In this document: one piece after another, positions 1,934 through 4,941 of the stretch
Position numbering within the stretch: the first letter of the stretch is position 1
Layout of the letters: the number at the start of each line of letters is the position of its first letter
IMG/VR virus record: IMGVR_UViG_2671180417_000017
Location: 1-4,978 of that record
Length of the DNA stretch: 4,978 nt
Source of the DNA: a virus
Lineage: Duplodnaviria > Heunggongvirae > Uroviricota > Caudoviricetes
Reading direction: 5' to 3' (one strand)
Program-made: the position numbers and the translations under genes
The notes under the pieces: model-generated
Told to the model about the DNA's origin: nothing
Seen by the model: only the letters and a program-made list of their open reading frames with translations
Database searches by the model: none

Positions 1934-2518
1934 ATGACCACTTTTACAAAAGAGCAGTTAATCAGTCATGTTAGTGAAAATGTAAAGGCGATGAAATTTG
2001 CAGTAAAACAGACAGCATTCAAAAATTCTCTCGAGGCAATTGAGTTGGATTTAGCACTGGCCCTTGTTGCTCAGGCTTCGCTGGAAGCAGAGCCCGTGCT
2101 TTATATGAATCGATTTACCGGAAAGACATTCTCACTGGAAGAGCAACCCGGTGCTGATAAGGAACCGGAAATATACGTGCCGCTATATGCTGCCCCGCCA
2201 GACAGCGCCGCCATGCTTCAGGCTGGAAACTTTCGGGAAAATAAGGGTTCGTCAACCAATAATTTTCGGGAAATCTCGGAAACGTCAACCAACTATCCGG
2301 TAACTCCGGATGGTTGGATAAGCTGTAGTGAGCGAATGCCGGATGACGGTCAGCACGTAATTATTTTATGTGATGGCGCATTTGTTCTTTATGCGCAATA
2401 TCGAGACGGTGAGTTTTTTGATGTAGTCCGTGATGGTGATGAATTTTTCGAAACACAGAGCCGCAATGTAACCGACTGGATGCCGCTACCAGAACCGCCG
2501 CAGGAGGTGCGCCAATGA
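1934..2518 (+). CDS. phage protein with C-terminal DUF551-like domain; alternative upstream start GTG 1874 would give 214 aa
   Basis: ATG 1934 with AAGGAG (1922-1927) at 6 nt spacing. In-frame GTG 1874 also has AGGAGG (1861-1866) at 7 nt and overlaps the upstream stop, so the start is ambiguous; the 1874-1933 stretch uses rare codons (AGG, TTA, TTG). C-terminus ...DGEFFDVVRDGDEFFETQSRNVTDWMPLPEPP matches my recollection of the DUF551 hallmark found in lambdoid ea/eaa-region proteins. Stop TGA 2516-2518. Confidence 0.8.
   Translation: MTTFTKEQLISHVSENVKAMKFAVKQTAFKNSLEAIELDLALALVAQASLEAEPVLYMNRFTGKTFSLEEQPGADKEPEIYVPLYAAPPDSAAMLQAGNFRENKGSSTNNFREISETSTNYPVTPDGWISCSERMPDDGQHVIILCDGAFVLYAQYRDGEFFDVVRDGDEFFETQSRNVTDWMPLPEPPQEVRQ
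2231..2296 (+). repeat. imperfect tandem direct repeat (2 x 33 bp) inside the DUF551-like gene
   Basis: TTTCGGGAAAATAAGGGTTCGTCAACCAA versus TTTCGGGAAATCTCGGAAACGTCAACCAA: first 10 and last 9 nt identical. Encodes the duplicated peptide FRENKGSSTNN / FREISETSTNY. Confidence 0.7.
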
Positions 2519-2598
2519 ACTGGCCTGAAGCATTTGCAATTACAGGCGTTGCTATGGCTATCACTTTTTTAGTATATGTTATTTGTCGGTGGGGGTAA
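2515..2598 (+). CDS. small hydrophobic peptide, 27 aa (MNWPEAFAITGVAMAITFLVYVICRWG), predicted single TM helix
   Basis: ATG 2515 overlaps the upstream TGA (ATGA), with AGGAGG (2501-2506) 8 nt upstream. TAA 2596-2598. Below the ORF-track length cutoff. Hydrophobic core ending in a basic residue. Confidence 0.5.
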   Translation: MNWPEAFAITGVAMAITFLVYVICRWG

Positions 2599-2633
2599 AA
2601 ACGTTCGCCGGGATTAACACCAAAGGAGGGAAT

Positions 2634-2738
2634 ATGTCGGATGATATATCACTGGCAATGGAAGGTGCGCTGGCTGTTATTGCTGTTGTGGGCGTTTACT
2701 GCCTGGTTGTGTTTTTGATGGATCGACTAGGGAACTGA
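2634..2738 (+). CDS. small hydrophobic peptide, 34 aa (MSDDISLAMEGALAVIAVVGVYCLVVFLMDRLGN), predicted single TM helix
   Basis: ATG 2634 preceded by strong SD AAGGAGGG (2622-2629). TGA 2736-2738. Acidic N-terminus followed by about 20 hydrophobic residues. Confidence 0.55.
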   Translation: MSDDISLAMEGALAVIAVVGVYCLVVFLMDRLGN

Positions 2739-2768: not shown

Positions 2769-2780
2769 GGTAAAAACGGT

Positions 2781-2808
2781 TTGCGGTAAAGCGAGAGTTA
2801 AGTAGAAT
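2781..2808 (+). promoter_or_regulatory. putative sigma70 promoter of hok/mok mRNA (-35 TTGCGG, 16-bp spacer, -10 TAGAAT)
   Basis: TTGCGG 2781-2786 and TAGAAT 2803-2808. The predicted start near 2813-2816 coincides with the beginning of the 5' element GCGGGTGCTTGAGGC, which resembles the 5' end of plasmid R1 hok mRNA. Confidence 0.45.
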
Positions 2809-2859
2809 TGCTGCGGGTGCTTGAGGCTGTCTGCCTCGGGCATGCCACCGTAAGGCAGA

Positions 2860-2936
2860 CAGAGAAAAGCCCCAGTTAACATTACGCGTCCTGCAAGACG
2901 CCTAACATTAATCTGAGGCCAATTTCATGCTAGACA
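2860..2936 (-). ncRNA. sok: putative Sok-like antisense RNA of the hok locus (boundaries approximate)
   Basis: On the - strand, -35 TTGCCT (plus 2965-2970) and -10 TAACCT (plus 2942-2947) with a 17-bp spacer would start an antisense transcript near 2935 covering the mok SD/start (2915-2929). An imperfect hairpin (about 2881-2906) follows but has no clean U-tract, so the 3' end is uncertain. Confidence 0.3.
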
Positions 2937-3139
2937 CATGTAGGTTAGCCTCTTACGCGCCGAAAGGCAAGGAGAAGCAGGCTATGAAGCAGCAAAAGGC
3001 GATGTTAGTCGCCCTGATCGTCATCTGTATTACCGTCATTGTGACGGCACTGGTAACGAGGAAAGACCTCTGCGAGGTACGAATCCGAACCGGCCAGACG
3101 GAGGTCACTGTCTTCACAGCTTACGAACCTGAGGAGTAA
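2927..3139 (+). CDS. mok: Mok-like N-terminally extended reading frame (70 aa) in frame with hok
   Basis: ATG 2927 with GAGG (2915-2918) 8 nt upstream. N-terminus MLDTCRLAS... resembles chromosomal MokC (MLNTCR...) from memory. Same frame and stop as hok. Confidence 0.5.
   Translation: MLDTCRLASYAPKGKEKQAMKQQKAMLVALIVICITVIVTALVTRKDLCEVRIRTGQTEVTVFTAYEPEE
2984..3139 (+). CDS. hok: Hok/Gef-family type I toxin (51 aa), HokD/RelF-like
   Basis: ATG 2984 with AAGGAG (2969-2974) 9 nt upstream. Protein MKQQKAMLVALIVICITVIVTALVTRKDLCEVRIRTGQTEVTVFTAYEPEE is near-identical to my recollection of E. coli HokD/HokC: TM helix followed by the conserved RKDLCEV...TEV..F.AYE periplasmic tail. TAA 3137-3139. 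Confidence 0.9.
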   Translation: MKQQKAMLVALIVICITVIVTALVTRKDLCEVRIRTGQTEVTVFTAYEPEE

Positions 3140-3207
3140 GAGACCAGGCGAGGGAGAAATCCCTCGCCACCTCTGATGTGTCAGGCATCCTCAACGCACC
3201 CGCACTT

Positions 3208-3229
3208 AACCCGCTTCGGCGGGTTTTTT
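3208..3229 (+). terminator. rho-independent terminator of hok mRNA (stem CCCGC, loop TTCG, stem GCGGG, then T6)
   Basis: AACCCGCTTCGGCGGGTTTTTT read directly: GC-rich stem, tetraloop, U-tract. Confidence 0.8.
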
Positions 3230-3348
3230 CACGTACTGTGGTTGTGAATACGATCGGTATTAGGCTATGCTAACAACATTAGCCTGACTAATTTTGTATT
3301 GACTTGATTTTTGTTAAAGAACAGGACGGAGAAGTAAGGGTACACCCA

Positions 3349-3528
3349 ATGAGCTACGCACTAAAAAAACACCCGCGATTGACTATTCCCCCTCGCGATA
3401 AAAGCGTTGTGGCAGCTCCGCGCCCGGCTATCGATGAAAATTGCACTCATCGTGAGCAGGTGAAAAATGCTTTCGATTTCGGTTTTTCTCGTTACGAGAA
3501 GGCAATGGAAGAACTTTCAAAAGTGTAA
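3349..3528 (+). CDS. putative antitoxin partner of the Doc-family toxin (59 aa; not Phd/YefM-like)
   Basis: ATG 3349 with AAGGG (3335-3339) upstream; the ORF track begins the frame at TTG 3304. Stop TAA 3526-3528 lies 18 nt before the Doc ATG, the usual antitoxin-then-toxin arrangement. Sequence MSYALKKHPRLTIPPRDKSVVAAPRPAIDENCTHREQVKNAFDFGFSRYEKAMEELSKV matches no antitoxin family I recognise. Confidence 0.6.
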   Translation: MSYALKKHPRLTIPPRDKSVVAAPRPAIDENCTHREQVKNAFDFGFSRYEKAMEELSKV

Positions 3529-3546
3529 TGATGGGTATTGTGCTCT

Positions 3547-4032
3547 ATGGCTGAGATTGTTGAAGGAGTGCACTACCTTTCGTTTGATGATCTTACCGAA
3601 ATTAATCGCCTTTTAATTGAGCTTCAAACACCAGATGAACCTGTTAGTGTGCTGAGTGTTGATAATTTAAGTTCTTCTCAGTCTCGTCCCAGCATGGTTC
3701 GATGGTATGAACAGACTAATGACATGTTTGTACTGGCATCAGTATTGATTGAAAGTCTGATTCAGAATCATCCATTTGCTAATGCAAACAAACGAACAGC
3801 TATGATGGCTGGTTATGTCTTCTTGTTGTTGAATGGCTATGAGTTAACAGCACCAGGCGATGAAATCGTGGAAATGGCAGAGGGACTGGCCTGCAAAACC
3901 TATACTCGAGAAGATCTCGAGAACTGGTTGTGTTATTGGTCTCGTGCGTATGACGGCCGGGAATTATGTAAAACAGGCGCAACTGTTGTTTTGTATGAAA
4001 CTATCAAGCTTAAAATAGAACAGCAAAACTAA
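3547..4032 (+). CDS. doc: Doc/Fic-family toxin (death-on-curing-like, predicted kinase/AMPylase fold), about 161 aa
   Basis: Motif HPFANANKRTA fits the Doc signature H-x-F-x-(D/N)-(A/G)-N-K-R, and the flanking helices (ASVLIESLIQN before, MMAGYVFLLLNGYEL after) parallel P1 Doc. Start is ATG 3547 or in-frame TTG 3538. Stop TAA 4030-4032. Confidence 0.85.
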   Translation: MAEIVEGVHYLSFDDLTEINRLLIELQTPDEPVSVLSVDNLSSSQSRPSMVRWYEQTNDMFVLASVLIESLIQNHPFANANKRTAMMAGYVFLLLNGYELTAPGDEIVEMAEGLACKTYTREDLENWLCYWSRAYDGRELCKTGATVVLYETIKLKIEQQN

Positions 4033-4048
4033 AGGTGCTTCTAATGAA

Positions 4049-4068
4049 AACCCGCTTCGGCGGGTTTT
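4049..4068. terminator. bidirectional rho-independent terminator (A-tract, CCCGC TTCG GCGGG, T-tract)
   Basis: GAAAACCCGCTTCGGCGGGTTTTGTTGT: the same 20-mer AACCCGCTTCGGCGGGTTTT as at 3208-3227. Sits between the convergent doc (+) and HTH antitoxin (-) genes, with A-run upstream and T-run downstream. Confidence 0.7.
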
Positions 4069-4082
4069 GTTGTATTGGAGTA

Positions 4083-4400
4083 TCATGATATTACCTGGAT
4101 TCCGTTTTTCTCTACGACTGAAAGAAGGCGAAGAGCGGCACCTCCCGGCCGTTTTACACCACGTTCCCAGTCTGATATCAGGTTTTTACTGACGTTGAGG
4201 TATCTGGCAAAAACAGGTTGAGACAGATGCTCTCGTTCGCGCAGTGCACGGATCCTTTCCGGAGACATTACCGGCGCTGGCTGGAGACAAGTTTCATCGA
4301 ATTCTCGCATAGTCTGTTTCGTTACTGCGCCGATATCATGAAGCGATTCCATCATTTCATGTACGGATGCAAGCGCATCACTGCGGTAATTTTTACTCAT
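4083..4400 (-). CDS. HTH-XRE family antitoxin (HigA-like), 105 aa
   Basis: ATG (plus 4398-4400) with GGAGGT SD (plus 4406-4411 reverse complement) 5 nt upstream; stop TGA (plus 4083-4085). C-terminal HTH LSQPVFARYLNVSKNLISDWERGVKRPGGAALRLL is typical of XRE-type antitoxins. Lies immediately downstream of a RelE-like toxin frame on the same strand. Confidence 0.85.
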   Translation of the reverse strand: MSKNYRSDALASVHEMMESLHDIGAVTKQTMREFDETCLQPAPVMSPERIRALREREHLSQPVFARYLNVSKNLISDWERGVKRPGGAALRLLSVVEKNGIQVIS

Positions 4401-4454
4401 TGGGTACCTCCGTAAACTGACCCTGTAGAATCAGTTGTGCCAGTTGTTCATCTG

Positions 4455-4762
4455 TTAGATTGAGTACGTGAGGAGCCCCTTCCGAAATGCACTTTCCTCA
4501 GTAGCGGTTATATTTTCACGTTCATTTTTTGCGTATGCATATACGAAAAAGGCCCTTGTGCCGACGCGATAGAAAATGATTGTGCGATAACCGCCAGATT
4601 TGCCGCCACCGACTCGTGGCAGACGTTGCTTGATAACGCCGTTACCCAGGTTTGCTGAGATAAGCCCGTTATCAGCCTGTTTAACAATTTCGCGCAGTGA
4701 TTGGTCGGATATTTTGTTTTGCGTGCAAGTCGCTCAAACCAGGCGTTTTTAAAAATGCGCAT
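4455..4762 (-). pseudogene. RelE/ParE-superfamily toxin (DUF1044-like, GGGKSGGYRT motif) disrupted by a 1-nt frameshift in an A4 run
   Basis: Frame A from ATG (plus 4760-4762) encodes MRIFKNAWFERLARK... and ends at TAA plus 4508-4510. The -1 frame from about plus 4721 encodes KISDQSLREIVKQADNGLISANLGNGVIKQRLPRVGGGKSGGYRTIIFYRVGTRAFFVYAYAKNERENITATEESAFRKGLLTYSI, ending at TAA plus 4455-4457. Both pieces look like one conserved toxin; the junction is the TTTT run at plus 4717-4720. Adding one A restores an ORF of about 101 aa. Confidence 0.65.
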
Positions 4763-4829: not shown

Positions 4830-4859
4830 TTGACAACGTCGCGTGTTCGGGGCTATATT
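4830..4859 (+). promoter_or_regulatory. putative sigma70 promoter (-35 TTGACA, 18-bp spacer, -10 TATATT) reading rightward
   Basis: Consensus -35 TTGACA 4830-4835 and TATATT 4854-4859. Divergent from the - strand TA module. Confidence 0.4.
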
Positions 4860-4920
4860 CCTCACGCGCCAGCAAAACCTGGCGTCGGGATTAGCACCCC
4901 GGATATCGAAACGGTGCATA

Positions 4921-4941
4921 ACCGCGCTGGCGGTTTTTTTA
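4921..4941 (+). terminator. putative rho-independent terminator (ACCGC GCTG GCGGT, then T7)
   Basis: Short GC-rich hairpin followed by TTTTTTT 4934-4940, about 75 nt downstream of the putative promoter. Confidence 0.5.

Follow-up and report, generated by a model that had tools for sequence, protein, structure and literature searches.

Two short peptide genes with single predicted membrane helices upstream of a hokW-type locus in Escherichia coli prophages

The DNA analyzed here, referred to as the window, is a stretch of 4,978 nucleotides (nt) of the tailed-phage record IMGVR_UViG_2671180417_000017. It contains two very short open reading frames (ORFs) in tandem on the plus strand, which we named pepA (27 codons, MNWPEAFAITGVAMAITFLVYVICRWG; positions 2515 to 2598 in the ORF list) and pepB (34 codons, MSDDISLAMEGALAVIAVVGVYCLVVFLMDRLGN; 2634 to 2738, with its ATG inside an ORF that spans 2583 to 2738) and which precede a hok locus. 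The data show that both are coding and under purifying selection, that both encode single hydrophobic helices, that pepB is translated in a lysogen, and that the arrangements of these genes are mosaic. We consider it probable that pepA and pepB are genuine, translated genes for single-helix small proteins, namely, prophage accessory (moron-like) inner-membrane peptides that act by helix contacts. Whereas pepB is already on record (XECs145/ECs_5710, "hypothetical"), pepA is an essentially unannotated family.

Start signals and conservation of pepA and pepB and translation of pepB

An earlier note on this DNA had described two tiny ORFs of 27 and 34 amino acids (aa), each with a strong Shine-Dalgarno (SD) site and one hydrophobic stretch, and the sequence, the ORF list, and hydropathy analysis confirmed this description. 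The SD of pepA (AGGAGG; 2502 to 2507, plus strand) is located 7 nt ahead of the ATG, within the coding sequence of a gene with a DUF551 domain, and that of pepB (AAGGAGGG; 2623 to 2630, plus strand) lies 3 to 5 nt ahead of the second ATG. An open frame of 27 to 34 codons alone carries no weight; it is the specificity of the SD sites that lifts pepA and pepB above chance. All pairs of a strong SD and a start codon in the window belong to annotated genes or to pepA and pepB, save one case of 4 codons. Local folding at the starts of pepA and pepB was no stronger than that of shuffled sequence (z scores of +1.43 and -1.63, respectively).

The DUF551-domain gene (1934 to 2518, plus strand; Pfam PF04448, E = 1.1e-20; coding sequence WP_000206792.1 of the Prokaryotic Genome Annotation Pipeline [PGAP]) ends in a TGA that overlaps the pepA start as ATGA. 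The translational coupling to this gene that had been proposed was supported and proved to be a family trait, the overlap being present in all 188 ATG-started copies of pepA. The proteins encoded ahead of pepA are of at least 5 unrelated C-terminal types, including those ending in ...PQEVRQ (DUF551), ...SVEDVLR, ...IEQKVNQ, and ...ATQGENQ, and a GGAGG or GAAGG element is retained in these other upstream contexts. Since the ATGA is kept behind unrelated upstream genes, the coupling belongs to the pepA module and not to DUF551. A fusion of DUF551 and pepA through ribosomal frameshifting was considered and rejected: the upstream genes and their last codons vary with the context, and there is no common slippery site.

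Searches with tblastn retrieved full-length matches to the 27-aa pepA product (59 to 67% identity) in 92 phage records, mostly of Shiga toxin (Stx)-converting and lambdoid phages, in which the neighbors of pepA are DUF551, Ea22, or EaA genes. Some 196 plasmid records (~196) also had a match, mostly non-mobilizable plasmids of ~90 to 130 kb; the two that we examined are IncY (P1-like) plasmids, from E. coli and Salmonella. Their homolog, MSWPEAF(A/T)TVGIVMAAALGLYSICRWW (27 aa; 1501 to 1584 in loci L294 and L295), overlaps the stop codon of DUF551 in L294 and of eaa in L295, and the next gene in both encodes a 77-aa protein and not hok. When one genome from each bacterial species was scanned, substantial pepA loci turned up in Escherichia and Shigella only. 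The same scan gave one partial hit in a metagenome-assembled genome and two contigs of <450 nt labeled Xanthomonas and Acinetobacter, with an E. coli-type pepA (together with hok in the Xanthomonas contig), that are probably contamination. Neither pepA nor pepB was found in CPS-53 of K-12. In the RefSeq records examined pepA is unannotated, and only a few GenBank records annotate it. The earlier statement that both ORFs were absent from the ORF track, if applied to public annotation, therefore holds for pepA but not for pepB, which PGAP annotates in O104:H4 as WP_001278450.1 and which is ECs_5710 in the Sakai prophage Sp6; UniRef lists it as an uncharacterized protein.

All fetched loci together contained 197 copies of pepA with 62 distinct sequences. 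Exactly 27 codons are intact in 168 of the 197 copies; another 16 stop 2 or 3 codons early, and 13 have an early stop, a frameshift at the start, or a lost stop. Damaged copies include those of Shigella phage POCJ13 (L002, 1536 to 1616), of loci L004 and L046, and of 7 loci in which W26 is replaced by a stop codon, and the lesions include codon 3 turned into a stop, the loss of 1 nt in codon 2, and an end two codons too soon. The annotation deposited for phage vB_EcoS-689R5 instead gives a frameshifted 36-aa reading of the pepA locus. Over the 197 copies, residues A6, G11, and I23 are invariant, and W3, P4, E5, F7, C24, R25, and W26 are nearly so. These conserved residues mostly use 2 to 4 synonymous codons, for example, GGC, GGA, GGT, and GGG for G11 or CGG, CGC, and CGT for R25; a single codon is found only at I23 and the Trp positions. 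For 10 divergent representatives, the Nei-Gojobori ratio of nonsynonymous to synonymous substitution rates (dN/dS) was 0.24 in frame, the two remaining sense frames giving 0.84 and 1.56. The minimal substitution events amounted to 40 synonymous and 51 nonsynonymous ones, with 24% synonymous expected (P = 2.3e-5), and no excess was seen in shifted frames.

The commonest pepA allele, MIWPEAFAITGVAIAIDFLVYVICRWG (45 of 197 copies; Sakai Sp6, L174 at 2344 to 2427, and many IMG/VR loci), has Asp17 in the middle of its helix. Position 17 accepts T, A, V, D, and E (one allele has Glu17), which may indicate that this residue makes a polar contact or faces a lumen. ORFs on the antisense strand were rejected as real genes, as they encode 67 aa in the window, 85 aa in Sakai, and other lengths elsewhere, and neither lengths nor ends are conserved. 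The low antisense dN/dS at pepA arises because the wobble positions of the antisense frame coincide with those of the sense frame, and the open antisense frame itself is a by-product of T-rich transmembrane codons.

The pepB family comprises two subtypes. Besides that of the window (type 1), we found a type 2 of 29 aa, (M)LVLKCALAIVAVMAIYCLVIVLMDHLSD, which is ~47% identical to type 1 and occurs in phages Tritos, Evi, mEp460, and HannyBb as well as in many IMG/VR prophages. The residues common to both are ALA..AV..YCL..LMD.L. Intact copies account for 102 of 108 (type 1) and 108 of 115 (type 2). The start signals are also conserved: (i) the SD of type 1 is (A/G)GGAGGG in 15 distinct intact sequences; (ii) the GTG start of type 2 is invariant in 35 distinct intact sequences; and (iii) a GGAGG or GGAGA SD is located 5 nt upstream of type 2 in 12/12 listed contexts, with flanking bases that vary. 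A promoter-like element, TTGnnn-17-CATATT, is conserved upstream of type-2 pepB; the window copy is without it and follows pepA. Both subtypes have an excess of synonymous changes in frame, with synonymous-to-nonsynonymous counts of 13:12 (P = 0.006) for type 1 and 12:16 (P = 0.046) for type 2 and none in shifted frames, and the sense frame is the only one open in 12/12 representatives. Frame conservation in homologous prophages, the lack of which the earlier note had named as refuting its reading, was thus found for both peptides: the frames are kept, and the synonymous excess is in frame.

A phmmer search with pepB against 1.84 billion representatives retrieved only 7 close relatives (79 to 100% identity) and did not find a distant family. 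An intact pepB-type ORF, MLVLKGTLAIAAVMTIYCLIVVLMERFSD, lies on the Shigella flexneri plasmid pCP301 (219920 to 220006; L297, 1501 to 1590), ~260 nt upstream of icsP/sopA, and this ORF of pINV is present in 124 Shigella plasmid records. At the pINV locus, the hok gene and an Rfam sok match are absent; similarity in an antisense ORF suggests that a fragment of the hok leader remains there. Both families are largely confined to Escherichia and Shigella prophages, with pepA also on IncY phage-plasmids.

Published ribosome profiling bears on the translation of pepB. Its 34-aa sequence is identical to the C-terminal 34 residues of XECs145 of E. coli O157:H7 Sakai, which was listed as translated and as a predicted inner-membrane protein with one transmembrane helix (Hücker et al. 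2017, PLoS One, PMC5597208). In LB, XECs145 had a transcriptome value of 79 reads per kilobase per million (RPKM), a translatome value of 346 RPKM, a ribosome coverage value (RCV) of 4.35, and a coverage of 0.99 (supplement of PMC5597208); annotated short genes had a mean RCV of 1.55, and translation of XECs145 collapsed in cold and osmotic stress (PMC5597208). The start rule of that study takes the farthest upstream start, rare codons included, which for XECs145 is an ATA that gives 54 aa (PMC5597208); this rule accounts for its longer N terminus relative to the 34 aa from the SD-preceded ATG. The absence of pepA from the same data is due to the exclusion of ORFs of <30 aa. XECs145/ECs_5710 lies in the same gene order as the window, DUF551-pepA-pepB-hok/mok, but the report (PMC5597208) gives no function, family analysis, or link to hok and does not consider pepA. 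The translation of pepB in uninduced culture could also stem from spontaneously induced cells.

Both peptides have one hydrophobic stretch, with best 17-residue Kyte-Doolittle means of 2.34 for pepA (residues 7 to 23) and 2.95 for pepB (residues 13 to 29). These windows are comparable to those of known small membrane proteins. AlphaFold2 modeled pepB as a single helix over residues 3 to 33 with a predicted local distance difference test score (pLDDT) of 90.6. The motifs of pepA are W3-P4 at the N-cap, a small-xxx-small face (G11xxxA/S15), and a C-terminal ICRW; those of pepB are an Ala/Gly stripe, YCL, and LMD(R/H)L. In searches of Pfam, PHROGs, NCBIfam, and PADLOC, both peptides gave only sub-threshold hydrophobic noise (PTR2, OadG-related, SecE, and Cmr5), and in hmmscan against Pfam at E <= 1, neither matched HOK_GEF, the adjacent hok gene doing so with E = 1.2e-22. 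Homology between pepA and pepB and homology between pepB and Hok were both set aside, as neither had profile-level support. The literature search on the peptide motifs found no mention in main texts. Taken together, both peptides have the start signals, the one predicted helix, and the purifying selection (strong for pepA, moderate for pepB) of small membrane proteins, and the proposal that they are small membrane proteins of phages is supported by the conserved frames, the helix predictions, and the profiling of pepB (PMC5597208).

Arrangement of the loci and linkage to hok

A lambdoid prophage of E. coli O104:H4 (e.g., NC_018658 at ~2.5415 Mb) matches the window with 100% identity. A 281-bp stretch with pepA and pepB is present in 796 of 5,426 complete E. 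coli genomes, mostly in more than one prophage each. We found five arrangements of pepA, pepB, and hok among the loci, where X is the gene ahead of pepA and Phok the hok promoter: (i) X-pepA-pepB1-palindrome-Phok-hok in the window and Sakai Sp6; (ii) X-pepA-Phok-hok in Stx2 phage II; (iii) X-pepA-promoter-pepB2-Phok-hok in an IMG/VR prophage (locus L081); (iv) promoter-pepB2-Phok-hok, without pepA, in Tritos, HannyBb, and most IMG/VR hits; and (v) X-pepA, without hok, in Stx2a_WGPS2 and the IncY plasmids. In the pepB2-hok cassette of Tritos (L092, 1016 to 1500) and homologous loci, at least 330 nt upstream of pepB are conserved at 60 to 80%, a stretch in which we found no annotated gene, conserved ORF, or Rfam match.

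Two copies of an 11-bp direct repeat (GGGTAAAAACG) flank a segment of 175 bp in the window, and this segment contains the pepB SD, pepB, and a palindrome. The left copy (2593 to 2603) spans the pepA stop codon, and the right copy, found in a repeat search, is at 2768 to 2778; none of 200 shuffled sequences contained two copies. The sequence that follows the right copy corresponds to the junction of pepA stop and hok promoter in Stx2 II-type phages, which suggests that the pepB segment was inserted into, or deleted from, this junction. The palindrome (CGATATGGGAATTCCCATATCG; 2747 to 2768) is a perfect one of 22 bp that lies after pepB and ahead of the hok promoter and is centered on an EcoRI site; as RNA, it would form a hairpin of -19.8 kcal/mol (z = -3.57). 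The same palindrome is found just ahead of hok promoters where pepB is absent, and it could be a joint left by recombination, bind a protein, or stabilize RNA as a hairpin. An intrinsic terminator at the palindrome was rejected, since no U-tract follows it, and a terminator-like hit inside pepB (2689 to 2705) was at chance level; no canonical terminator was found between the peptide ORFs and the hok -35 element.

The position upstream of hok, already pointed out in the earlier note, is real and recurrent. When the hok promoter and leader served as the sole anchor for sampling (116 loci), 93 loci (80%) had pepA and/or pepB within 450 nt upstream and 23 had neither, some of these keeping a stub (MDHLSD followed by a stop codon) or the palindrome alone. 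For 76 of 80 type-2 pepB loci, hok lies ~215 nt downstream of pepB (exactly 215 nt in 64), and this pepB2-hok pair occurs with at least 22 different far-upstream neighborhoods. Either pepA or pepB ends within 10 to 40 nt of the hok -35 element. In the window, the probable hok promoter (TTGCGG-17 nt-TAGAAT; 2780 to 2808, plus strand), read from the sequence and conserved in all hok-linked arrangements, is the downstream limit of the peptide module. The hokW-type locus that follows, named hokD by PGAP (leader and hok/mok coding region, 2815 to 3139, plus strand), is a neighbor of the peptide genes and not part of them. It comprises the leader (2815 to 2989, plus strand; Rfam RF01794, sok/hok leader, 116.9 bits) and the hok gene (2984 to 3139, plus strand; Pfam HOK_GEF PF01848, E = 1.2e-22). 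The leader match starts 77 nt past the pepB stop, and both peptides are outside the hok mRNA. At the 5' end of this mRNA (~2811 to 2815), UGCGGGUGC (2811 to 2819) is perfectly complementary to GCACCCGCA (3195 to 3203), just ahead of the hok terminator hairpin (~3209 to 3229), which a consensus terminator scan did not report. This pairing is the expected fold-back (tac/fbi) and fixes the ends of the hok transcript.

According to PGAP, the surrounding genes are, in order, an ATP-binding (DnaC-like) gene, DUF1627, DUF977, DUF551, the 34-aa hypothetical, hokD, a hypothetical, and a Doc family toxin gene, with a helix-turn-helix (HTH) gene and a RelE/ParE gene on the opposite strand. The module is in the accessory region downstream of the DnaC-like gene; in Sakai Sp6, the module is found upstream of Q. 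Three toxin-antitoxin modules lie inside 2 kb (2815 to 4712): hok/sok (type I), a small ORF (3349 to 3528) followed by the Doc-family gene (3547 to 4032), and the HTH gene (4083 to 4400) with the RelE/ParE gene (4455 to 4712), both of the latter on the minus strand. Further downstream, isrK (4866 to 4940; 74 bits) and the C4 antisense RNA a1/b1 targets (4853 to 4905; 47 bits) gave Rfam matches above their gathering scores. This region (4853 to 4940), just upstream of an ORF6N-domain gene, looks like the immI-type antisense control region of P1/P22.

Alternative roles of the peptides

The linkage to hok raises the possibility that the peptides are protein-level partners of Hok, a third component of hokW cassettes that would pack against the Hok helix in the inner membrane, to damp leaky Hok in the lysogen or to aid Hok-assisted lysis upon induction. 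The high share of hok loci that carry them, the regular spacing between type-2 pepB and hok, the maintenance of this pair across many upstream contexts, and the few bases that separate either peptide gene from the hok -35 element all speak for such a role. In addition, HokW has its site of action at the inner membrane and takes part in the lysis that follows mitomycin C treatment (PMC8621323). However, hokW-sokW cloned without the peptides is a complete, working type I toxin-antitoxin pair (PMC8621323), and 23 of the 116 hok loci have neither peptide, some with a stub only. Moreover, the 550 nt ahead of hokB, hokC, and hokE in K-12 contain no hydrophobic ORF, Stx2a_WGPS2-type phages and IncY phage-plasmids carry pepA but not hok, and a pepB-like ORF survives on Shigella pINV after the loss of hok. 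Since hokW works alone, K-12 hok genes are without peptides, and each peptide is found without hok, the linkage, although striking, can be explained by the very short distance; across tens of bases, it is expected from hitchhiking alone. The data would allow pepB to be functionally linked to Hok but do not demand it, and we regard a partnership of the peptides with Hok as unlikely.

The earlier note had raised a likeness to type I toxins. We give little chance to such a reading, in which the two would be stand-alone type I toxin-like peptides that depolarize the membrane and are held in check by an unrecognized antisense RNA. Their length, hydrophobicity, and net charge do resemble those of TisB, DinQ, ShoB, and Ibs, the region is dense in toxin-antitoxin modules (hok/sok, doc family, and RelE/HTH), and two weak promoter-like sites are present on the minus strand (2658 to 2631 and 2599 to 2571). 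Both of these sites score only 9/12, though, and the finding of two compares with 1.2 ± 1.0 in shuffled sequence, which is not above chance. The gene organization also argues against a toxin: (i) there is no Rfam match in 2515 to 2738 at E <= 0.1, that is, no antisense RNA family; (ii) the SD sites are near consensus and exposed, with folding no stronger than in shuffled sequence; (iii) pepA is coupled to a normal gene; and (iv) pepB is translated efficiently in LB, with an RCV (4.35) that a potent toxin would not tolerate.

Alternatively, the ORFs could matter only in cis, their translation or transcription tuning read-through into the hok promoter or interfering with sok, the peptides themselves being functionless. 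Both ORFs stop just ahead of the hok -35 element with no canonical terminator found in between, and upstream early read-through would fit the observation that mitomycin C lowers sokW RNA and raises HokW (PMC8621323). This explanation appears very improbable to us, because selection acts on the amino acids (in-frame synonymous excess, several codons per conserved residue), the pepA sequence is kept where hok does not follow, and simple read-through does not need a fixed length of 27 codons and a conserved motif. That the ORFs are noncoding, arising by chance or as an annotation artifact, would agree with how common open frames of 27 to 34 codons are and with the lack of a curated family match, but it is contradicted by the conservation, start-signal, and ribosome-profiling data and can practically be dismissed.

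Proposed action and comparison with known systems

The explanation that we favor, accessory prophage peptides of the inner membrane, can be outlined as follows. Within the "ea22/DUF551/eaa" accessory cluster of the prophage, pepA takes the final position, and it would be translated by coupling to whichever gene precedes it, through the ATGA overlap and an SD within the upstream gene. pepB is a small unit apart from pepA, with a strong SD and, in type 2, a promoter-like element of its own, and it is physically joined to hokW-type hok/sok loci on their promoter side. Both peptides are predicted to insert into the inner membrane and may there make sequence-specific helix-helix contacts, with themselves or with a membrane-protein partner. 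Action by helix packing is suggested by G11xxxA/S15 and ICRW in pepA and by the Ala/Gly face and YCL...LMD(R/H)L in pepB, a pattern that typifies small proteins whose helix packs with its own kind or with a larger membrane protein. The peptides would accordingly be accessory (moron-like) products of the prophage and not parts of the hok/sok RNA circuit.

A number of observations weigh against this explanation. (i) About 15% of pepA copies (~15%) are damaged (early stop, frameshift at the start, or loss of W26 to a stop), so that the constraint on pepA is not absolute. (ii) Asp17 is in the center of the hydrophobic helix of the most frequent pepA allele. (iii) The pooled pairwise dN/dS of pepB is 0.42, a modest signal, and one antisense frame scores similarly; the value is partly due to the N-terminal third, which cannot be aligned between the subtypes. 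(iv) No orientation that is consistent between the two pepB subtypes follows from their charges, and the membrane location of both peptides is a prediction from their sequences. (v) The experimental support for translation covers pepB and not pepA, and the profiling reads may be common to similar prophage copies. (vi) Redundant prophage collections, searched with homology as the anchor, supplied the loci, and phylogeny is ignored in the counts of substitution events.

A more far-reaching role is conceivable, although we judge it to be rather unlikely: pepA and pepB might form an unrecognized protein layer of hokW cassettes that gates Hok, for lysogen immunity or as a lysis helper, or they might be superinfection-exclusion peptides that are expressed in the lysogen and bind a host inner-membrane protein. 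If so, they would represent a new functional class of phage membrane effectors of 27 to 34 aa, one that annotation pipelines systematically miss because pepA is shorter than the usual length limits of gene calling. As a well-conserved 27-codon family that pathogenic E. coli, Shigella, and Salmonella carry in many Stx and lambdoid prophages and on IncY phage-plasmids, pepA is in any case a clean example of genes hidden by length cutoffs. Two unrelated mini-helix genes recur against the hokW promoter, and hokW is reported to assist the release of Stx2 phage; this raises the testable question of whether small membrane peptides modulate the action of Hok or prophage lysis. Should the peptides leave Hok and lysis unaffected, they would be an ordinary pair of accessory small proteins.

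Several known systems can be compared with pepA and pepB. Like the peptides, the adjacent Hok/Gef proteins (PF01848) are small and prophage borne and have one N-terminal transmembrane helix with a Cys. The peptides are half as long, however, consisting of a helix only without the periplasmic C-terminal domain of Hok (~50 aa, conserved Cys), and they have neither a HOK_GEF match nor the mok/sok/fbi RNA architecture. The short type I toxins TisB, DinQ, ShoB, IbsC, and ZorO share with them the size (19 to 35 aa) and the single hydrophobic helix; here, in contrast, an antisense RNA was not detected, strong SD sites lie exposed, pepA has a coupled start, and translation of pepB is constitutive. With phage morons of the Hendrix type, pepB has in common that it is present or absent between related phages, that type 2 has its own promoter-like element, and that it is translated in uninduced culture. 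It differs in being without its own terminator, and the window copy is without a promoter and follows pepA, while the coupling of pepA to an early-operon gene is unlike an independent cassette; the moron concept thus fits pepB partly. Finally, AcrZ, MgtS, MgrB, CydX, KdpF, and YohP are proteins of at most 50 aa with one transmembrane helix and conserved packing motifs of small residues, and small proteins of the AcrZ type are known or presumed to function through binding to larger proteins of the membrane. Although pepA and pepB share no homology with them, are prophage borne, and have a narrow distribution, proteins of the AcrZ/MgtS type provide the best functional analogy for the two peptides.

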